Of a DNA stretch of 64,000 nt, positions 49,638 through 61,145 are shown one piece after another. Source of the stretch: Candidatus Hodarchaeota archaeon. GTDB taxonomy: Archaea; Asgardarchaeota; Heimdallarchaeia; Hodarchaeales; Hodarchaeaceae. Position 1 is the first letter of the stretch. The number at the start of each line of letters is the position of its first letter. The stretch covers positions 83,175 through 147,174 of the forward strand of contig JAEOTC010000086.1 in assembly GCA_016840035.1 (NCBI GenBank), in the 5' to 3' direction. The notes under the pieces were generated by a model. The model made no database searches. It was not told the DNA's origin and saw nothing but the letters and a program-made list of their open reading frames with translations. The position numbers and the translations under genes were made by a program.

Positions 49638-50111
49638 TTATACAGCAATATCATATCCTGCACTATATATGGGATCCTGAGCTTCTCCATCAACTGAATA
49701 CTCGACTTTGATACGTACTTCATCATAAGCTCCAGGAGCAAAGGTGAAGACCATATCAATCTTGGATTGACTGGTTGCTATATTGAATGGAAAATTCGTT
49801 GAAGTATTATCATCATTAGTGAAAACAGCCCATGCACCAGATCCAGTTCTTCCTTCTAGAGTAACATTAGTTACTGCGACTGTGTCTGCGAGTTCATTGG
49901 TTAATGTAAACGTCAATTTGTCATTAAAACCATCAGTATCGATGTCTGAGAGGGTGGTTTTCCCGAATTTTAATTCTCCAGATGATTGGATCATCGGTAA
50001 CACAACTACAAACAATACAGCACCTGCAGCAACTGCGAGTCCAATTAGCAAAATAGCTGCTAATATTGGGCTTACAGCTCTTCTTCGTCTATATATTTTT
50101 ACTAAATTCAT
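49638..50111 (-). CDS. Archaeal type IV pilin-like protein
   Basis: Class III signal RRRRA/VSPILAAILLIGLAVAAG; start reassigned to ATG 50111. Confidence 0.88.
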   Translation of the reverse strand: MNLVKIYRRRRAVSPILAAILLIGLAVAAGAVLFVVVLPMIQSSGELKFGKTTLSDIDTDGFNDKLTFTLTNELADTVAVTNVTLEGRTGSGAWAVFTNDDNTSTNFPFNIATSQSKIDMVFTFAPGAYDEVRIKVEYSVDGEAQDPIYSAGYDIAV

Positions 50112-50351
50112 TTTACTTAATTCTCCGTGAAATATGTTCAATTTCTTTCCGTATGAGCGGAATTAGCAATATTGGTATATATTGGATATTATTTAAGCAT
50201 TTCATTTCATATGCTCAGAGCTTAATAAGCAGAGTTGAATAAAATATCCGAGAGTCTAGAAAACGATTCTAGGAAAGATGAGTGCGGAATATTGATTCGG
50301 ATAACTTATTATCATACTCATCCTAAAATGGACAAAAGGTGCATTTCAAGA

Positions 50352-51836
50352 ATGGTGAGACGATTTTCCACAACAAGTAGCGTTCTCCTCCTTACTCTAG
50401 TTCTCTTTGGAGGACTATTTTCTTTAGCAAATTCGATCACCTCGGCTCATACACACAGCTTACTAGATAGTGATTCTCCTAAAATCGCGATCTTTTATGG
50501 ATCAGCTAATGATAAAAGAATCAGTGAACAAATGACTTTGGATACAGAGATTGACGTAGAATATTATAATATCTCATCTGTTCTCACGAATCCTTCTTTC
50601 GTTTTTGATAATAATAGTGTGAAAGCAATTTGGTGGATCAACGAACTTCATCTACCAATCGATTTCTCTTTTGTGGGCGATCTAGCTTCCTGGGTGAAAA
50701 GTGGAAATGGATTGTTTATTCTCAATAAATACTTTGATAGGACACCTCTTGTGGAGCTTCAGAATTTAGGAATCAATGGTTATTGGCCTGAAGTATATCC
50801 CCTGAATCAGAGGTCAGATATGCATACTATTGACCTAGTGAATGAATCTCTTCCTTCTCTACAGCTTGAACAACTGTCTTATGAATTCAATGGTTCTTCC
50901 ACTTGGGTAGATTTACATGAGAAAACAGTTGTCCTTGCAGAGATTTCTCAACCAGAAAATGAGGCGTATCTCTCAAAATTCAATTCGGGTCTCTGGTTGG
51001 TACAAAATAAAGTTATTGTAGGTAGCTTTTCAGTGAATTTATCCCCTCCACAGACTAGGAATAAGTATGAACTATTGAGTGTACGTTCTACTTTAGCAAG
51101 TGGTCTAATAGATGTCCTAGGGGAGATTGCTCTCTTGACAACTGATAGTTTCTCAGATTCATCAGGAATGTTTCAATTTACGGGATTTGAACAGATAACA
51201 ACAGTTGTTATTATTTCTATTGTGGCAATTATCACTTTTATTGGCTTCATGAAGGTTGGTATTATCACCAAAGCTCGTGAGATCATAGTTGGAGTATTTA
51301 TGGGGACGTTTTTTCTACTGGCCCATATTGCTTATTCCCCCCAAAGAAGGAGAATTAGTGAGGATGATTTATTAGATAATGAAATGCGAATGCAAATTGT
51401 CGGATACTTGGAAGAGAAAGGTGAACAGGGGGCACATCTTCGTGAAATTCAGAGAATCCTTGGATGTGGAATCTCCTCCCTCTTATGGCATTTACAAGCA
51501 TTAGATGATTTCAATATTGTAACACACCATAAAATTGGGAAGTATCATCTATTTTACCTCACAGGTTCAGAATCACTACAAATATCAGAAATAGCATTAG
51601 CATTAAAGAGTGAGGTGGCCAAAGATCTTTGCAAAGTGTTATTACGGAATAAGAATCCCCTCTCTCTTTCAAAAATATCCTCTAACATCAATGTTCATCA
51701 TTCAAGCGTTCAACATCATATCAAACGACTTTCTGATTTAGGAGTAATTATGATAATTAAAGAGAAAAAGCGATCGACTTATATTATAAATCCAAATAGG
51801 GTAGAATCATTAGAAAAAGTCATGGAGGTAGCCTGA
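50352..51836 (+). CDS. Membrane-anchored transcription regulator (signal peptide, extracellular domain, TM, tandem wHTH)
   Basis: Signal MVRRFSTTSSVLLLTLV, TM region, GAHLREIQRILGCGISSLLWHL and LSKISSNINVHHSSVQHHIKRL helices. Confidence 0.85.
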   Translation: MVRRFSTTSSVLLLTLVLFGGLFSLANSITSAHTHSLLDSDSPKIAIFYGSANDKRISEQMTLDTEIDVEYYNISSVLTNPSFVFDNNSVKAIWWINELHLPIDFSFVGDLASWVKSGNGLFILNKYFDRTPLVELQNLGINGYWPEVYPLNQRSDMHTIDLVNESLPSLQLEQLSYEFNGSSTWVDLHEKTVVLAEISQPENEAYLSKFNSGLWLVQNKVIVGSFSVNLSPPQTRNKYELLSVRSTLASGLIDVLGEIALLTTDSFSDSSGMFQFTGFEQITTVVIISIVAIITFIGFMKVGIITKAREIIVGVFMGTFFLLAHIAYSPQRRRISEDDLLDNEMRMQIVGYLEEKGEQGAHLREIQRILGCGISSLLWHLQALDDFNIVTHHKIGKYHLFYLTGSESLQISEIALALKSEVAKDLCKVLLRNKNPLSLSKISSNINVHHSSVQHHIKRLSDLGVIMIIKEKKRSTYIINPNRVESLEKVMEVA

Positions 51837-53510
51837 CTGAGAGTATCCAACAATCTTTTACGATTCAGTATAGCTATTACCTTCTCTATTCTTGTGGTCT
51901 CTACATTCTTCACAGGAGCTATAGGCAACAGTAATTCGATCCAATTCTCCCAGTTGGATCCTTTTTACCAACAATCGCTATTTGGATTGAGATTTGACTA
52001 TAATCATGGGATTTCGCAAGAGAATTCTCTACAATTACACACGAATTTGGTTACTGGACAAGAAATTAATGATTCCATTGATCCTGATCCAATCATTGAT
52101 AATAACATTTCGATTATCGGACAGGACTCCTATGGAATAAAATCGTTACTTTTCGCTACAGAAAATATTGGAAGATCAGAGTTTATACCTCTATTTGGAA
52201 CCTTAGAATGGCAAGCTTCTCTTCCTTACTTCAAATATATCTCCATGTTTGATTTGCCTTCTGGAGAAAGTGTGATACTAACTCAAGACATCTTAGGTTT
52301 AGCCTTGAAGCTAGATGGGCAGAATTTCCTGACTGATCAATATCTAGTAGGATATGCCAATATACCTGTAGAATTCTTGGAATTCTTGTTTGAATCCCTA
52401 AATCCTGTTCAGATGGCTGAAAATTCGATTAACGGGTATACTTCTCCAATTGATATGCCAAATTTGTCAAATCCAAATCCAATGAGAATTTCTATTGAAG
52501 AAAATGACAATGAATTGATAATTACCATGACTTATACAAATATATCTTATTTATTTCAAACAAATCCAATTAGTATTGAACACCTTAGTAGTTTTAGTCT
52601 TTCAGAAAATTTTGTTTTGATTGAGTTCGAATCAATCTCCTACATCACGAGAATATTGAAATATTCCACATCAAGTAATACTGGAGTAGAAACACAAGTA
52701 GAAATGAGTGTTGGGAGGATTCGGAATTTGTTAATCAATGAGAAACTACCATCAGAAGTAAGTTGGGATTCAGCATCAGAAACACATATCGTAAAAAAAT
52801 ACGAAGACTTGATCAACATTGATGAAACGATTTCATGGTATAAAGAGGTTGATATTGAAAAACGAATGGCTTTATTTAACCAAGCTTCTCTTTCATTTCT
52901 AGGTTCGCATAATCTAGGTGTGGTTTCTAACACTGAATCACAAAAGAATTCGTTTCTAAAAATTGATGGGCAAAATAGAACAAAAAATGAGTTATTACAA
53001 ATGGATCTCTCTGCTGAGAGAAATATTTCATTATATCAAGATAGCAATCTTCTCCTTTTGAATCAAATAAATGGCTATGATTATGCACTTCATCTGGAAC
53101 CAAACTTGCAACATTGGTCATTGTCACCTGTAAGTATAAAATCAATAGCATTGAATCAACATCCGAGTTTAAGTGGTAACATTTTATTTTTAGATCAGGC
53201 CTCTATTTTAAATCCGTTTTTGGTTGATGTTCTCCGACGTTTTACGGCTAATCTGTCTACTAGTACCCTTAGTGCAGAACAAATTCTAAAAACTGCCACA
53301 CTATATCTTACATCCGCGGAATATATTCAAGAGTATTGTATAAACTCATGGACTGGTTATCCCACAAAAATAAAATCACTTTCAACAGCAATACTTAATT
53401 CAAATAACTTAGAAGTTGGCCTATCAAGAATATCGTTCTTTCCACTCTTTCCTGGGTTATTATCGATATTTTTCATAACGGTTTACCAGACAAGAAAGAG
53501 ACGTATGTAA
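51837..53510 (+). CDS. Secreted/surface protein with C-terminal TM; divergent paralogue of 53871..55655
   Basis: In-frame CTG start gives a signal peptide; shared motifs YTNI/YTNM, VETQ/VETR, SWTG/EWFG; ends FPGL-TM-RKRRM. Confidence 0.75.
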   Translation: MRVSNNLLRFSIAITFSILVVSTFFTGAIGNSNSIQFSQLDPFYQQSLFGLRFDYNHGISQENSLQLHTNLVTGQEINDSIDPDPIIDNNISIIGQDSYGIKSLLFATENIGRSEFIPLFGTLEWQASLPYFKYISMFDLPSGESVILTQDILGLALKLDGQNFLTDQYLVGYANIPVEFLEFLFESLNPVQMAENSINGYTSPIDMPNLSNPNPMRISIEENDNELIITMTYTNISYLFQTNPISIEHLSSFSLSENFVLIEFESISYITRILKYSTSSNTGVETQVEMSVGRIRNLLINEKLPSEVSWDSASETHIVKKYEDLINIDETISWYKEVDIEKRMALFNQASLSFLGSHNLGVVSNTESQKNSFLKIDGQNRTKNELLQMDLSAERNISLYQDSNLLLLNQINGYDYALHLEPNLQHWSLSPVSIKSIALNQHPSLSGNILFLDQASILNPFLVDVLRRFTANLSTSTLSAEQILKTATLYLTSAEYIQEYCINSWTGYPTKIKSLSTAILNSNNLEVGLSRISFFPLFPGLLSIFFITVYQTRKRRM

Positions 53511-53752
53511 TTAAATCAAACCCCACAATTATTTACCATCGGAATTTTAACACTAATAGATGTAAAAAATTTACATTTATTTAGAGTAGTTCCTTCACAG
53601 GTTAGCTAATAGAGAGATGAAATACTTTTTTACACGTCTTTGATAGTGTATCGACAGATAACAGCGAAATTATTAATTAATATGCAAATCTTCAGAGAAT
53701 GAACCTAAATTTAACCCCCGGATAGTTTCTCTATATGATATTGCGGATTTTC

Positions 53753-53773
53753 ATAACATATGATGTTATAAGT
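53753..53773 (+). promoter_or_regulatory. Inverted repeat ATAACAT-N3-ATGTTAT overlapping a TTATAAG TATA-like box
   Basis: Perfect 7-bp arms at 53753-53759 and 53763-53769, about 100 nt upstream of 53871. Confidence 0.45.
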
Positions 53774-53870
53774 TAAGGTTACTGGAGAGTACCTAGACTT
53801 TGGACTCGATAAATTTACTCTCGGAGAAACGAGAAAGATTTTCGAGAATTCCAAGATAGGTGTTTTAATA

Positions 53871-55655
53871 ATGAAGAAGAAACTTATTACGGGAAGTTCG
53901 GTAATCTTTTTACTGATACTTCTTACATTTACTTCTCCAGCTCAAGCCACGGATTATGCAGGGCATGATTTTAGTGAGGATCATTTTGCTGTTGAAATCG
54001 ATCTTTTCCCTAATCCTGCAGACCCTGACGTAATCTACGATTTTGGTACAGGAACTGGAGATGGAGACTCAGTTGAAGAAACTGATTTGCAATTCTTTAT
54101 GAGCTATATGAATCATAGTGGAATTGAAGTAGCTTACTCCGCTTTAGAAAAAATGGAACACTGGATAAAATTCCGTGATTTATTACCTACCGAAGTAGGT
54201 GAGCTCATTGATACTCTAGGTCCATTGGCACCTGAAGGCGCAGCAGAGGCTCTTAACTCAAACCTTGTTCATGTCAATGCAACAGCACCCTTCCAACAGT
54301 TAGTTCAACACTTTAACACTCCTTGGGGTACTGATGCCTTTGTAACAAATAATTTCATGACACTAGTTGCCTATTCTGGAGGAACTGGATCAGATCCTCT
54401 ACTTATGGACGCAGGTGATAATCTCTATATGGGTTATACTTTTGCAGTCCAAGAAGTGACAGATGCCCTTAACGCAGTCATGGCACCACATTATGAGATT
54501 CCTCATTTTGATTATGAAGCAAATTTTGAGCAAACTGCAGATGGATATACATTCGGTATCAATTATACCAATATGTTTGTCTTATGGCAGGATATTACCG
54601 TTCCCCTTCGTGGACCAGATTATTTAAATGCTGCGGGCCTTCAACTACCAGAAACTAAAGGAGTTATCTATGGACAAGATATTGTTGCCGCATCAGTTTT
54701 AGATCATCTTGCTTTTGAATATATTTTCAAAGTAGAACAAATTGATTTAGGAACTACTCCCTCAATTAAAGTTAACCTAGGAACTGTAGAGACAAGATAT
54801 CATATTGGTGAAACAAATTTACTTGTTACAAAAGATGATGCGACATTCATCTCAGATCATTCCGCCGATTGGCTTGGTTCACCTTTTACTGCAACACCCA
54901 GTTACACTTTAGATGTTCCTCTCGCTCTCCAAGGCCAAACTGTTGGTTCGTGGACTTTCCCAGCCAGTGTAACTCTAACTCTCTCAGAAATGGCTTTCTT
55001 TATCAACGATGATGCTAAAGTTAGAATGAGTATGGCTGATGCCTTTGGGTTAACTGTTGTAACTGCAACAAACTGGTTTGATACTCAAGTAGTAACAGAT
55101 CCTCAATATGCGACTCACTTAGATGAACCTGAAGATCCTAAAATTACTCTCGAAAGAGATGGAAATGAATTCTTCTGGACTAGTTTCAAAGATAAAATGA
55201 ACTATAAGTTAAGAGAGTTAAATTTTGATCCTTTCTTCGAGGATGACACTATTGATCGTGATGTGTATGTTACATTATTTGATCCAAGTGGTTGGTTTGC
55301 GGCTAATGTTGCTAAACCATATTTCCTTATCGAATTTTCACTTGCTTGGGGCTTTACAGTCTTCATGGCTTCAAAAATTGCACCAGAAATTGTTCATCCA
55401 GGAGCAGGTTCACATACAGAAGTGGTTAACCAAATCCTATATTTAACTTTCACTGAATTTCCAGAGTGGTTTGGTGGAGAAATCTATCATGATCCTTCAT
55501 ATTCTGCTGTTGCAGCGGTTGCTGCTCAACCAGAAACAACCACCGATAGTCCACCTGGAACTGATACGACTGACGCAGCCTTTCCAGGATTTGAATTAGT
55601 TTCTGTATTAGTTGCACTCCCTCTCATGTTTGCAGCATATCGAAAGAGACGATAA
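53871..55655 (+). CDS. PGF-CTERM surface (S-layer-like) protein, predicted archaeosortase substrate
   Basis: Sec signal ending AQA, Thr-rich linker, FPGFE + TM + RKRR. Confidence 0.85.
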   Translation: MKKKLITGSSVIFLLILLTFTSPAQATDYAGHDFSEDHFAVEIDLFPNPADPDVIYDFGTGTGDGDSVEETDLQFFMSYMNHSGIEVAYSALEKMEHWIKFRDLLPTEVGELIDTLGPLAPEGAAEALNSNLVHVNATAPFQQLVQHFNTPWGTDAFVTNNFMTLVAYSGGTGSDPLLMDAGDNLYMGYTFAVQEVTDALNAVMAPHYEIPHFDYEANFEQTADGYTFGINYTNMFVLWQDITVPLRGPDYLNAAGLQLPETKGVIYGQDIVAASVLDHLAFEYIFKVEQIDLGTTPSIKVNLGTVETRYHIGETNLLVTKDDATFISDHSADWLGSPFTATPSYTLDVPLALQGQTVGSWTFPASVTLTLSEMAFFINDDAKVRMSMADAFGLTVVTATNWFDTQVVTDPQYATHLDEPEDPKITLERDGNEFFWTSFKDKMNYKLRELNFDPFFEDDTIDRDVYVTLFDPSGWFAANVAKPYFLIEFSLAWGFTVFMASKIAPEIVHPGAGSHTEVVNQILYLTFTEFPEWFGGEIYHDPSYSAVAAVAAQPETTTDSPPGTDTTDAAFPGFELVSVLVALPLMFAAYRKRR

Positions 55656-55880: not shown

Positions 55881-58451
55881 ATGACAAATATTGATCTTCT
55901 ATCAGATCCGATAAATCTAGTAATCTCTCTAATATTAACATTTTCCCCATTAATTGTTTTATTCATTCCATATCTGTATACTCGACGAAAGTCGGAAAAT
56001 TTTATCGCTACGATATTTAATCGGGCATATGTCGGGTTTGTGATTTTTTATATAGCGTATTTCATTTTTCCCAGTATTCTAAACTCATTTGTACCAGATC
56101 CGAATCAATATATTGATCAAGAATACTATCCAATTGCAGGAAGTTCTGGATGGACAACTGTATGGGATTCTGAATCAGTAATCACCCAAGGAGCAGTATC
56201 GGTACCTATACCACTGCTGATAAAGTATCTCTTTCAACATTTTTTTAACTCAATTGTGATATTTCTGAGTTATCCTGTAGTAATTCTCGCATTCGTCTTT
56301 GGTATTTCCCCTATAATTTCTATGTTGATTATTTTCTACCAGACTTGGACTGAAAAGCGGAATGAACTAAATCCAATCAAAAAATTAATCAAACGGAATA
56401 ATAAAGAAATTTCTCAACTCAAAAAGCAGTTAAAACACGCTAATGAATCAGAAGCTTATGAGAAGAACGTAGCTATTTCTGAATTTAAAACTGAAAATCA
56501 AGAATTGGAAAAACAACTTTCCGAAGCAAGATCAGTATCCCAACGTTTGCAAGAAATCCAATTCGAGCTCGAACACTCCCCGTTCCATGCTGTAATGAAA
56601 AGAGTAAAAGAGAAGAATTGGGATAATGAAAGAGAGTTATTGAAAGTTTTAATTGCGATATTACCCATTACATTATTTTTATTGATGACAATATTGCAGT
56701 TACTCGGAGAAACTGAAAACCCAAGCTTACTCCAAGGAACATCAATGGGGTGGTTTTTAGAAATTTATTTTGCCTATATCGCAACTCTAGTATTCAGTAT
56801 ATACCTAATAAAGGCCAGTCTATTATCAAGAAAAGGTAAGTTCTTGGGTAATCAAATGTACATTGCAATGGTTCAAAGTTTATCCACTGTTGGTGCTTTT
56901 ATGTCGGGATTGGCCGTTATATTATTCTTGGTGCAATATTTCGATCAGATATTCGTTGTTTCGTACTTTATCGTCTATTTCATCATGGTTTCACTATTTT
57001 TCGTGCTTTTCTTAGATGTATTTGAGCCATTCTCTATATACATCTTGTTAAAGCTAATAGAGAGCTTTAAATCGTTTAGAGTATCAATACGGAGATTTAA
57101 TAGGATAAATATTGCGAAAAGTACCATTTCAGGTATTCTAGTTGGTGTTCTTCTATCTGTTGGTTTTTTAACATATCTAGTAATTGTCAAAAGTATTTTT
57201 TCTAACTTTAGTACTGTTCAATATTCGACATTTTTCTGGTTAACTCAGAATTATGCAAGTTTTCTACTAGCAGCAACATTAGTTTTAATAATTAGGCGCT
57301 GGAATTGGAGTGTTATCGGAACTAGCACCATTACATATTTGTCTATATTATTTGTAAGTCTTTTCATAATTCGATGGTATTTTGAAGAGTGGTATATATT
57401 CCTAGGTTTCAGTGAAGGTGACCTATATCCAAGCTATCAAGGAGAGATTCTAGTTGCACCCTTTCTTCAGGCTACTTCGGTTTTAGGAACTATTGACCTA
57501 AACTGGTTAACTGCTGTATGGAAAGGTGGAACATATGGTGACTTTCAATTTATCTTACCTGAGTTACGGCAGATACCTGTGATCTGGCAAGGATCTGGAG
57601 GTCAATTTTTACAAGCTCTCTCAATCCCCTATAACTTATTTCATCCCTTGGCAATCCTTCTTATATATGGGGGTATTTTATTCCTAGCTGGTAAACAATT
57701 TCATGTCAGAACACAAAAAGGAGAAGAAAAAACTCAATATAAGTCAATTTTTTCAGATGTCACCCGTTTACTCAGTACGGATGAGCTAGAATCAAAATCT
57801 GACATTCTTTTAATCGCTGCAACTCCAGCTAAGGATGAAGAAAACGGAAAATTGATTGATAAAGCATGGCTGAATTCAGAAAAAGGAAGTTTCCTTCGTG
57901 ATGCAATTACTGGCCAAATGCAATCGATTTCTAAACTGATAGAGAAGACTGGACTTTCAATTGATGAAATCCATTCCATTTTAGATGAAGTGACATATGA
58001 CGCAGACGTACCTTTCAATCAGATTATTACTCTCTGGCATCGGGAATTCTCATATTCATTCGAAGAAGTAACTATCGATTCACTTCATGTAATGATGCTG
58101 GATGGGCGCGCGGTTCTTTCTCACACATTTGGAGAAGAATCACAAGTAGAACCAGCATTAGTAGCTGGATTATTTTCTGCCATTACATCTTTTGCAAAGG
58201 AAGCTGTTCGTAGTGAACAGTTACTCAAGACTATTGACCATGGGGATGTGGTTCTTACGATCGAGTATGCCAAATGGGTATTCGCTGCGATTTTTGCTGA
58301 CAGTACATCCACTGAATTACGTAAAAAATTAGGTGAATTTTTGAATGATTTTGAATCAAGGCATAAGAAAACCCTTCCTAAATGGTTAGGAGATTTAGAT
58401 GCATTCACGGGAGAAACAGAGATGATTCGGGAGCTCTTTCCTGGATCATAA
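55881..58451 (+). CDS. Polytopic membrane protein with coiled-coil insert and C-terminal longin domain
   Basis: About 11-12 hydrophobic segments, a KQLK..ELEKQL coiled coil, and C-terminal DGRAVLSHTF..PALVAGLFSAITSF..FESRHK..WLGD longin signature. Confidence 0.8.
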   Translation: MTNIDLLSDPINLVISLILTFSPLIVLFIPYLYTRRKSENFIATIFNRAYVGFVIFYIAYFIFPSILNSFVPDPNQYIDQEYYPIAGSSGWTTVWDSESVITQGAVSVPIPLLIKYLFQHFFNSIVIFLSYPVVILAFVFGISPIISMLIIFYQTWTEKRNELNPIKKLIKRNNKEISQLKKQLKHANESEAYEKNVAISEFKTENQELEKQLSEARSVSQRLQEIQFELEHSPFHAVMKRVKEKNWDNERELLKVLIAILPITLFLLMTILQLLGETENPSLLQGTSMGWFLEIYFAYIATLVFSIYLIKASLLSRKGKFLGNQMYIAMVQSLSTVGAFMSGLAVILFLVQYFDQIFVVSYFIVYFIMVSLFFVLFLDVFEPFSIYILLKLIESFKSFRVSIRRFNRINIAKSTISGILVGVLLSVGFLTYLVIVKSIFSNFSTVQYSTFFWLTQNYASFLLAATLVLIIRRWNWSVIGTSTITYLSILFVSLFIIRWYFEEWYIFLGFSEGDLYPSYQGEILVAPFLQATSVLGTIDLNWLTAVWKGGTYGDFQFILPELRQIPVIWQGSGGQFLQALSIPYNLFHPLAILLIYGGILFLAGKQFHVRTQKGEEKTQYKSIFSDVTRLLSTDELESKSDILLIAATPAKDEENGKLIDKAWLNSEKGSFLRDAITGQMQSISKLIEKTGLSIDEIHSILDEVTYDADVPFNQIITLWHREFSYSFEEVTIDSLHVMMLDGRAVLSHTFGEESQVEPALVAGLFSAITSFAKEAVRSEQLLKTIDHGDVVLTIEYAKWVFAAIFADSTSTELRKKLGEFLNDFESRHKKTLPKWLGDLDAFTGETEMIRELFPGS

Positions 58452-58526
58452 TTTCTTAGACTAGGGAGGGTTTCTCCATCTTTGTATTCAAATCAATGGG
58501 CAGTGGAACGAATCACGGAATTTAGG

Positions 58527-61145
58527 TCATTCTATCTGAGCTATCACACAGAGAAAGGTATCTGGCGTATATATTGATACTGACACAATAAGATTTGCAC
58601 TTCCAGATGAAAGAATATATTTTGGTCCCTTTAAGGGGTTTGTAGTCTTTCTATTTGGTATAAAACCGGCTTTAGTTAATAATTTTAAGCTTTCAAGCAA
58701 TTCTGATTTAGTATAGATGTTAACGCTTTGAGTATTTCGTTTAATTTGAATATTTGATTCAAAAATAATGTCACGGATCAATATATCTTCTTTAAGTGCA
58801 TCTGGAATATCATTTTCATGAATTTCTGAAATCAACGGCATGATCCAATTCTCAAGGACTTCATTTGGAAGATCAATTGTGGATTCTAGAGAAGGGTCAA
58901 CCTCGAAGGCTTTAGTAAAAAAGTCTTCTTTTTGATCTGGTTCTAATTCTTGACGAACAGCGATTTCTTCTTTCTCAAAACTCGGTAATTTACGATTTTT
59001 ATCTTGTGGTACTAAAATACCCTTTTTAAATAGTATTATAAGTTGCTCAAAGATTTCATTATATTTAAATTTTGAACTAAATAAGCCATGATTTACTATT
59101 TCCTTAATAAACAAACCTTCAGTGTTAGCCAACTGATTATTTTGCTCTTGAATAACTTGAAGTAGTGGATTATCTGAAACTTGCTCTTCAGTATCTATTC
59201 TAAGTGCAAGCGGTCCTAATACAGATAAACCAAGAATATTATCAAGGTCTTCTATTGCTGATTGAAATGGATCTAGTTCTCCAACGAAATCAGTAAGTAG
59301 ATCCTGGAATCTCTTTTCAAAAGCGTAAACAAATTCCCGTCCTCGTTTTCTCAGACGTTTACTGAATCTTGGAGGTCGTTCTAATATAAATGCTGTTACT
59401 GAGTAATTTCCTTCAATAGTAACAATTTTAAAAGTCCTATCGCCAATATCCTCGGTAAAGTCTCTTACTATAGTTCGATCTTTTATTTCCTCACTTTTTA
59501 ATTCCGTAAATAAGCTTGAAATTGCTGTTAGGAAGCCAGAAACTAATTGTGGATCAACTTTGAGCATTGAAGTCCCAAATTTAAACAAACAAATACCAGT
59601 GAGCTTGTGAGTTATCATAATATGTTCACAATAAAGAAGATTCATTAGATCCTTGTAATCTATAGGATTCATAGGTGAAAATCCCAGGGAGGGTTCGACT
59701 TTGATTTCGTGAAAAATCTCGTCCTTTTTACTAGCACTCACTTGTTCTTCACGTATCCCAGACTTAGCACGAAAAATCGGTATTAAATCTGGCATACTAT
59801 CCTTTTGAGGATCAATATGTTTGGTTAACCTTGCTCGAACTTTAATTTTGACTGGACTCGAAATGCTATCTTGGAGACCCACAATTAAAGCTTCTCCTTT
59901 TGTTAAATGGGGGAGAACTGAAACTGTATCTGTATTTATTCCCTCCATTAAACGAATTTTTGTTATATCTTTTTCGGATTTGATTCGGAGAGCTACGAGA
60001 GTATTCATGTTCGCGATTATATTATCTGGCAGATCTCCTGGTCTTTGTGACACTAGCATCTCGTAAATACCAAATTTTCTCCCTTCACGCGCGATTTGTG
60101 CAAGAATATCGCTTTTTTGAACAAATCTATGTGCTTCCTCCAATATTATCAAGATTTCCTGTTCATGTGGAATCTCTCCCTGAATTTTTTTCTGAAATAT
60201 TTGAGTTAGTAATTCATTCACTAATGTATTCCTTTTTTTCTCATCTGTGTATTGATCAAGTCGAATGATCGATATCTGGTTTTCACGAACTAGAGAGGAA
60301 ATATCTATTTCTTCTTTATACACAGATTGTTTTTTAAGAGTGTTAATTTTCGAAATTAAATTTTCACGTGTTTGTGTGTGCATATCAGAATTCTTTATAT
60401 TGGTTAAAATAGATTCCAGATTATCTGGCTGGTCAAGAATGTTCGTGAGTGCATTTTCTTGAGCGGTTGATAATTCCAATAGTCTTCTTAGTTTTGGTAA
60501 ATCAAATTGGGTTCCTAATCCAATTGTTCCTTCTCCAAAAATTAGTAACCTTTCAGCGAACCCTTGTGGGTAATATCCTTCGTAATCTAAAGAACTGATT
60601 TCACTTCCTGTATTTTCTAATCCAAGTCCCCAATATTCGTTGTGAACGTCGAAGAGTAGTATCGAGGTGTTTTGGATTTTCAAAAGAATCTCCTCCAATA
60701 AAACACCAATACTGTATGACTTTCCTGCCCCCGTACTAGCTACACATAGAACATGTCGTTCTAAAAATTTAGGTGATATTAAGAATGGATCCGTTGATGA
60801 GGGAGAAGTAACAATATCTCCTAAATATATCCCCCCTTCTCCATCATAGGATATAATTTTTGAAATCAACCCTTTTGGAGGAATAGACACTTCTGAATCC
60901 ATTGAGATAGGAATTCGACATGGTTTTAAGCGAAATTCATCCATTTCAAATTCCCCCAGAATATCTGCAATCGCTTTCATCTCCCCTTCTTTTTCTTGTG
61001 ATAATCGGAATATTTGAGCAATTAGATGCTTATTACTTGACCGATTCTTGTCAAATAAAACAATATAATCTCCTTCGTGGAAAATATTCTCGTCAATATC
61101 CGAAAGAAAAGTAATACGGGAGGTGGTGGTTTTTGTAATTTTCAT
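58527..61145 (-). CDS. HerA/FtsK-type ATPase fused to a longin domain and a C-terminal extension
   Basis: HAS-like N-terminus, RHV..ASTGAGKS, FDVHNEY, LEEAH, REGRKFG, SQRP, then TGICLF..DPQLVSGFLTAISS..FEKRF..FVGE. Confidence 0.85.
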   Translation of the reverse strand: MKITKTTTSRITFLSDIDENIFHEGDYIVLFDKNRSSNKHLIAQIFRLSQEKEGEMKAIADILGEFEMDEFRLKPCRIPISMDSEVSIPPKGLISKIISYDGEGGIYLGDIVTSPSSTDPFLISPKFLERHVLCVASTGAGKSYSIGVLLEEILLKIQNTSILLFDVHNEYWGLGLENTGSEISSLDYEGYYPQGFAERLLIFGEGTIGLGTQFDLPKLRRLLELSTAQENALTNILDQPDNLESILTNIKNSDMHTQTRENLISKINTLKKQSVYKEEIDISSLVRENQISIIRLDQYTDEKKRNTLVNELLTQIFQKKIQGEIPHEQEILIILEEAHRFVQKSDILAQIAREGRKFGIYEMLVSQRPGDLPDNIIANMNTLVALRIKSEKDITKIRLMEGINTDTVSVLPHLTKGEALIVGLQDSISSPVKIKVRARLTKHIDPQKDSMPDLIPIFRAKSGIREEQVSASKKDEIFHEIKVEPSLGFSPMNPIDYKDLMNLLYCEHIMITHKLTGICLFKFGTSMLKVDPQLVSGFLTAISSLFTELKSEEIKDRTIVRDFTEDIGDRTFKIVTIEGNYSVTAFILERPPRFSKRLRKRGREFVYAFEKRFQDLLTDFVGELDPFQSAIEDLDNILGLSVLGPLALRIDTEEQVSDNPLLQVIQEQNNQLANTEGLFIKEIVNHGLFSSKFKYNEIFEQLIILFKKGILVPQDKNRKLPSFEKEEIAVRQELEPDQKEDFFTKAFEVDPSLESTIDLPNEVLENWIMPLISEIHENDIPDALKEDILIRDIIFESNIQIKRNTQSVNIYTKSELLESLKLLTKAGFIPNRKTTNPLKGPKYILSSGSANLIVSVSIYTPDTFLCVIAQIE

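Follow-up and report, generated by a model that had tools for sequence, protein, structure and literature searches.

In archaea, HerA works with NurA, Mre11 and Rad50 in end resection, and in the Ced system the polytopic CedA is combined with the HerA/VirB4-like CedB, an arrangement of ring ATPase and polytopic membrane protein that recurs in the VirB4, TraD and FtsK pumps. HerA proteins are also part of anti-phage systems, with Sir2 or DUF4297 effectors or as mad8 of MADS. Solved longin domains, for their part, often form pairs with another longin or with a roadblock domain and bind small GTPases. We analysed a stretch of 64,000 nucleotides from a Candidatus Hodarchaeota archaeon (Hodarchaeales; assembly GCA_016840035.1, contig JAEOTC010000086.1, positions 83,175 to 147,174), called the window below, in which two neighbouring genes bring these elements together: MEM, for a polytopic membrane protein, and ATP, for a HerA-family ATPase with a C-terminal arm, each product carrying a longin domain. 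The linkage of the two genes persists well beyond general collinearity. Papers on Asgard longins, roadblocks and GTPases report fusions to GTPases, TRAPPC3, DENN and two-component domains (PMC10933270; bioRxiv 10.1101/2020.10.19.343400), and our search of the literature on Asgard longins found no HerA-longin fusion and no account of a MEM-type membrane protein.

The two open reading frames (ORFs) face each other tail-to-tail across a gap of 75 bp and share a single domain, MEM residues ~716-852 aligning with ATP residues ~497-618 (34% identity, 104 residues aligned, E 5e-10). The original prediction, made from the letters of the DNA, had placed both ORFs and a common domain at 55881-61145, which proved correct, and had called this domain a longin in both proteins. 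Structural models agree with that assignment. Both MEM (full length, 65 homologues; predicted local distance difference test (pLDDT) 82.4, predicted TM-score 0.82) and the arm of ATP (residues 440-872, 56 orthologues; pLDDT 74.5) were modelled with AlphaFold2, and in both models the domain shows the longin order beta-beta-alpha-beta-beta-beta-alpha(-alpha) around a five-stranded sheet (DSSP), with an additional short N-terminal helix in ATP and an additional N-terminal strand in MEM. When compared with solved structures by VIA, the ATP domain was closest to the Lokiarchaeota longin 8yqg_B (Z 12.8, 136 aligned residues), followed by Sec22 (Z 11.5) and VAMP7 (Z 11.3), against 9.5-11 for roadblocks; the MEM domain gave Z 13.8 with the CPLANE longin, 13.2 with Sec22 and 12.9 with VAMP7, against 8.3-9.5 for roadblocks. 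Foldseek retrieved the AP sigma and mu subunits, zeta-COP and Mon1-Ccz1 for MEM, while its top match for ATP was roadblock2 of the Asgard archaeon MK-D1 (6e-4); VIA places longins above roadblocks in both proteins. Since solved longins rank 1-4 Z units over roadblocks, we consider both shared domains to be longin folds. Neither domain had a Pfam longin or roadblock match, even at E 10, and the isolated longins, the linker and the C-terminal domain of the arm had no Pfam or NCBIfam match. Overall, the fold is that of Sec22b, VAMP7, AP sigma/mu, CPLANE Fuzzy/Inturned, Mon1-Ccz1 and 8yqg (Z 11-14, root-mean-square deviation 2.4-3.1 A over 114-136 residues). Like many known longins, that of MEM sits on a membrane-associated protein; unlike them, the two domains described here belong to a membrane protein of ~11 helices and to a HerA-type ATPase.

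We then looked at the distribution of the pair. Both genes have full-length orthologues in 21/21 genomes of the family, 61-87% identical for MEM and 47-73% identical for ATP, and they are adjacent and convergent in every one of them, a spacer of ~1.6 kb separating them in two genomes (G019:C125:10066-11719 and G021:C16:4147-5789). Outside the family, MEM homologues of 34-36% identity were again found tail-to-tail with an ATPase-arm gene at three loci, L005, L010 and L011, whose flanks are different (L003, L004 and L005 were examined at the locus only). The co-occurrence and synteny that the original prediction had proposed to follow across genomes thus hold in the 21 genomes and at these three loci. 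The ATPase found there, which we call type B, has no N-terminal barrel and is 19-22% identical to the ATP protein P0002, with weak matches to CedD, CedB, VirB4, TraD and HerA models, yet the homology of its arm to the arm of P0002 is clear. On the same strand, the gene preceding that of type B encodes a Metallophos (Mre11-like) protein in L005 (9583-10896) and a ParA/CbiA-type ATPase in L010 (5019-5783). The Walker A and B, arginine-finger and SQRP motifs, predicted to be intact, are so: they are conserved among orthologues, and residues G139, G141, K142, E337, G355, R356, Q367 and P369 are invariant over both ATPase types. Wherever we saw it, the ATPase-arm fusion adjoins MEM.

The arm has a history of its own. 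It also exists as standalone proteins of 412-501 residues, which were found by profile search, a word-based search with the arm giving close orthologues only. The standalone arm gene of L027 and L026 is preceded by an SA-like gene, either together with the regulator or without it (both genes are described below), and in G022 and L028 the standalone arm lies at a DUF4443/MptE locus; MptE also flanks ATP in the window. Because the arm occurs alone, with a classical HerA and with a very different ATPase, it appears as the functional constant and the ATPase as the exchangeable part. The arm is older than the ATPase fusion, and different ATPases were attached to it in different lineages. Its C-terminal domain was also seen by itself, in library proteins of 107-130 residues (P0213, P0215, P0216 and P0227).

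Turning to MEM, hydropathy and the helices of the model delimit a membrane region of ~11 helices. The basic loops 35-40, 313-321 and 398-407 point, by the positive-inside rule, to a cytoplasmic location of the coiled-coil hairpin and of the longin, and the predicted topology has the N-terminus outside and the C-terminus inside. The hairpin, of ~100 residues, is an insertion of MEM's own family, which the homologues in L010 and L011 lack. The longin is the best-conserved stretch of MEM, well above the rest of a protein whose overall identity to these distant homologues is only 34-36%; conservation so far above that of the membrane region fits a conserved interaction surface. Within the helices, the acidic residues E294, D379 and E382 occupy invariant alignment columns and, speculatively, hint at the passage of an ion or a substrate. 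A sortase-type enzyme was considered for MEM and set aside, as the protein has no invariant Cys/His/Arg set. A glycosyltransferase-C fold was considered too and may still apply to MEM; no structure of that kind appeared in the top Foldseek rows for the whole model, which were filled by longin matches. A precomputed Pfam label, PF28006.1, is attached to MEM and two orthologues in the protein database and lies outside the Pfam copy that we searched; part of MEM may already be covered by a very recent Pfam family. In G008 the MEM gene is seemingly truncated to a frame of 206 residues.

Three genes upstream of MEM complete the cluster: REG, encoding a regulator with a winged helix-turn-helix (wHTH), SA, encoding a putative surface protein, and SB, encoding an anchored surface protein that scores 21.7 bits against NCBIfam NF045529, just below its cut-off of 24. 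Together with the names that orthologues bear in their sources, this Heimdall-CTERM match agrees with a place of the genome in the Hodarchaeales, in the Heimdall group of Asgard archaea. The arm gene is linked to REG at two loci, L011 and L027. Its immediate upstream neighbour in L027 (E 2e-6) and L026 (E 1e-5) is a weak homologue of SA, the L011 case being marginal (E 0.006), and SB homologues immediately precede the MEM homologues of L004 (E 7e-74) and of the Heimdall LC_3 locus L003 (E 6e-57), neither of which has an adjacent ATPase. From these linkages across loci, a recurring unit emerges that comprises five genes, namely REG, SA, SB, MEM and the arm. The positions of the genes and of the segments of their products are collected in the table.

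Features of the MEM-ATP locus, in window coordinates; residue numbers refer to the protein concerned
Feature	Position	Strand	Description
REG	50235..51836	+	533-residue wHTH regulator; orthologues match Pfam HTH_20, HTH_HVO_0163_N
SA	51894..53510	+	538-residue fast-evolving putative surface protein; weak homologues upstream of arm gene
SB	53871..55655	+	594-residue surface protein with Heimdall-CTERM anchor; directly upstream of MEM
MEM (P0001)	55881..58451	+	856-residue polytopic membrane protein with C-terminal longin domain
MEM membrane region	55881..57689	+	residues 1-603; ~11 helices from hydropathy and model helices
MEM charged coiled-coil hairpin	56328..56621	+	residues ~150-247, predicted cytoplasmic; model helices 112-184 and 189-214
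MEM linker, cytoplasmic	57690..58025	+	residues 604-715; short strands and helices in model
MEM longin domain	58026..58436	+	residues 716-852; helix-1 motif at nucleotides 58146-58196
ATP (P0002)	58527..61145	-	872-residue HerA-family ATPase with arm (longin, winged-helix-like segment, C-terminal domain)
ATP N-terminal region	60801..61145	-	residues 1-115; probably HAS-type barrel, fold inferred
ATP P-loop core	59835..60788	-	residues 120-437
Walker A	60714-60737	-	ATP residues 137-144
Walker B	60129-60155	-	ATP residues 331-339
Arginine finger REGRKFG	60069-60089	-	ATP residues 353-359
VSQRP	60039-60053	-	SQRP at ATP residues 366-369
ATP longin domain	59292..59657	-	residues 497-618; helix-1 motif at nucleotides 59508-59558
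ATP winged-helix-like helical segment	59007..59273	-	residues 625-713; assigned by eye from model
ATP acidic linker	58866..58967	-	residues 727-760; pLDDT <50, poorly conserved
ATP C-terminal alpha/beta domain	58533..58865	-	residues 761-871; pLDDT 81-91

Footprinting of the upstream regions at 15 loci brought out an element made of GCGGA, 5-11 bases, TTCG and a T-run that is conserved upstream of the regulator (~70 bp) and of SB (~140-160 bp). It was seen in many genomes of the family, at L015, L016, L019, L020, L022-L024 and L002. The counterpart regions in the window are 50085-50235 and 53720-53870, and the strict pattern has no match in the window itself. The element is absent upstream of MEM, of ATP and of the thioredoxin reductase gene; the upstream regions of MEM and ATP each have a conserved block of their own.

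MEM and ATP probably work together, as members of an envelope-associated cluster. The best explanation we have for the whole, which we hold tentatively and which falls a little short of being probable, is that of one conserved Hodarchaeales envelope module in which the arm brings the motor to MEM at the membrane. The arm would be a targeting or regulatory device that delivers the motor to MEM on its cytoplasmic side; docking would occur by direct pairing of the two longins or through one of the organism's many small GTPases, and the motor would then perform ATP-driven work at the membrane, as part of a process linked to the neighbouring surface proteins SA and SB. We infer physical docking, assembly of a ring, action on the membrane side and a substrate that may be DNA or a polymer. 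Direct longin-longin docking would be the simplest mechanism, a GTPase-mediated link or purely parallel regulation being possible as well. A complex prediction for the two longin regions (A2 705-856 and A1 50-210) scored 0.01 against a mark of 0.32, which speaks neither for nor against binding. In its boldest form, a new archaeal membrane machine in which a HerA/FtsK ring ATPase is recruited to MEM by longin pairing, possibly gated by a GTPase, and drives a translocation or remodelling linked to the surface proteins, the proposal seems unlikely to us.

The interpretation given in the original prediction is supported only in part, and a number of observations weaken it or weigh against the envelope-module account. 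The comparison with CedA and CedB made in the original prediction stands for the general arrangement and fails for the families, since among the NCBIfam Ced models MEM had no match and ATP had no CedB match and reached only 57.6 bits with CedD (cut-off 600); moreover, unlike the Ced and VirB4-type systems, ATP has no predicted transmembrane or hydrophobic segment (hydropathy), and the coupling would be made by longins, which those systems do not have. The resemblance is therefore only an analogy. No motif common to the MEM and ATP upstream regions emerged from the footprinting, hence no shared operator. Adjacency within the family is weak evidence because a block of at least 10 genes is collinear there, and in L003, L004, G022 and G023 MEM has no adjoining ATPase or arm gene. 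For L004, two small convergent ORFs beside MEM were considered as arm remnants and rejected.

The abundance of the longin module, a very large family in Asgard archaea, counts on the same side. A hidden Markov model of the domain finds 26 ORFs of 147 to 1538 residues in the window's genome, and in the library 724 representative clusters match a profile of the arm at E <=1e-3 (310 at <=1e-10). In most of these 724 clusters the longin and the winged-helix-like segment stand as a module at the C-terminus of proteins of 250-3000 residues; this two-domain module (profile positions 58-275) recurs at the C-termini of hundreds of proteins, some of which carry NosD/beta-helix, Ig-like, FG-GAP or HEAT domains. 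Two neighbours both carrying a longin are thus less special than they look, the module being abundant and a common C-terminal tail on large proteins whose other domains are of extracellular type, and we estimate that ~0.2 adjacent longin pairs per genome are expected by chance. Likewise, the helix motif that the original prediction had pointed out is indeed present in both domains (MEM 756-772, ATP 530-546), but it occurs in all 26 longin ORFs and is a signature of the family rather than of the pair. Within the genome, the best partner of the ATP longin is that of MEM, narrowly (25.8 vs 23.5 bits); the MEM longin is nearer to two other paralogues, so that the two are not reciprocally closest.

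Such data agree with a different explanation, in which MEM and ATP make no contact, their longins being independent GTPase-binding or regulatory modules and the two genes being neighbours through a shared regulon or cluster. Besides the number of longin ORFs, the fusion of the module to many unrelated proteins and the affinity of the MEM longin for other paralogues, this explanation draws on the 61 Ras-superfamily GTPase genes of the window's genome, several of which adjoin longin ORFs: longin-module ORFs lie directly beside such genes on contigs C144 (5197-8334) and C36 (6591-9086). It also draws on the standalone arm P0212, which is not beside MEM and is convergent with two tandem Arf/Ras/Roc-type GTPase genes (L012:3513-4906), again a point against our preferred account. 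L012 belongs to the same assembly as L004, whose MEM homologue has no ATPase neighbour. Conversely, no GTPase gene is found near the MEM-ATP pair in the window's genome, the sole one on the contig being at its far end, and the pair stays convergent in divergent lineages in spite of rearranged flanks and a changed type of ATPase. We regard the absence of contact as a serious possibility, if a somewhat unlikely one.

A second alternative, which we judge quite unlikely, is that ATP acts on DNA, in repair, segregation or defence, as a regulated variant of HerA, MEM being unrelated and the gene order simply inherited. ATP does share with archaeal HerA the DUF87/HerA core (Pfam DUF87, E 4e-16, plus HerA_C), its motifs and an alignment over the region of the N-terminal barrel, that of NCBIfam HerA_Thermprot beginning at residue 67-68. 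By sequence, ATP matches best the HerA proteins of repair and of anti-phage systems: in the Protein Data Bank they are 9x1l (4.6e-25) and Sulfolobus HerA 4d2i (8e-20), and PADLOC gave generic HerA and mad8 matches of at most 123 bits. The Metallophos gene that immediately precedes the type B ATPase in L005 and the collinearity of the whole block within the family would also suit a role on DNA. Yet the HerA matches stay far under the equivalog cut-offs (NF040819, 106.4 vs 970 bits; NF040937, 86.6 vs 800), Pfam FtsK_SpoIIIE is likewise below its own (12.7 vs 24 bits), and ATP differs from archaeal HerA by its longin arm of 430 residues. Pfam and NCBIfam searches of the window found no NurA, Mre11 or Rad50 gene in the neighbourhood of ATP, as had been predicted. 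Unlike the anti-phage HerA systems, the locus has no adjacent effector gene, MEM has no PADLOC match and the cluster is chromosomal, collinear and vertically inherited. In addition, each examined genome has two further HerA paralogues, each adjoining a NurA gene (G000:C18:572-1405 and G000:C98:368-2670 in the window's genome, G000, where one NurA-side HerA is probably lost beyond the contig end; G010:C1:2810568-2812921 and 921352-923644 in G010). ATP is thus a third HerA copy, with no NurA gene alongside, and since these dedicated pairs are located elsewhere it is free for another role. Finally, even where there is no ATPase, the arm keeps its link with the genes of the regulator and the surface proteins. 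In G022, one HerA-NurA paralogue is also grouped with Mre11 and Rad50 genes; a fragment from that genome that is 40% identical to the ATPase core is part of this classical HerA-Mre11-Rad50 operon and was therefore not counted as an orthologue.

Last, that MEM and the arm serve the surface proteins (anchoring, sorting or envelope sensing) and that the ATPase is a late, dispensable and lineage-specific addition with no translocase role is very improbable: it is true that the ATPase fusion has a narrower distribution than the linkages of SB with MEM and of the regulator with SA and the arm, and that ATPase-free arms exist, but the strict conservation of the ATPase motifs in both types speaks for a selected catalytic role, MEM lacks the invariant residues of a sortase-like enzyme, and neither MEM nor ATP is preceded by the promoter element that the regulator and SB have.

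Longin domains are characteristic of membrane traffic in eukaryotes, and the Hodarchaeales belong to the archaea that have been proposed as the nearest relatives of the eukaryotes. If the arm does bring the motor to MEM, this conserved link between a ring motor and a membrane protein through a longin arm would reveal a role that longins had before vesicle traffic; in the bolder form, with recruitment by longin pairing, it would also be an instance in a prokaryote of a motor recruited to the membrane by longins. MEM and ATP provide a concrete, clonable pair for testing, and the modular history of the arm is informative whichever substrate applies.

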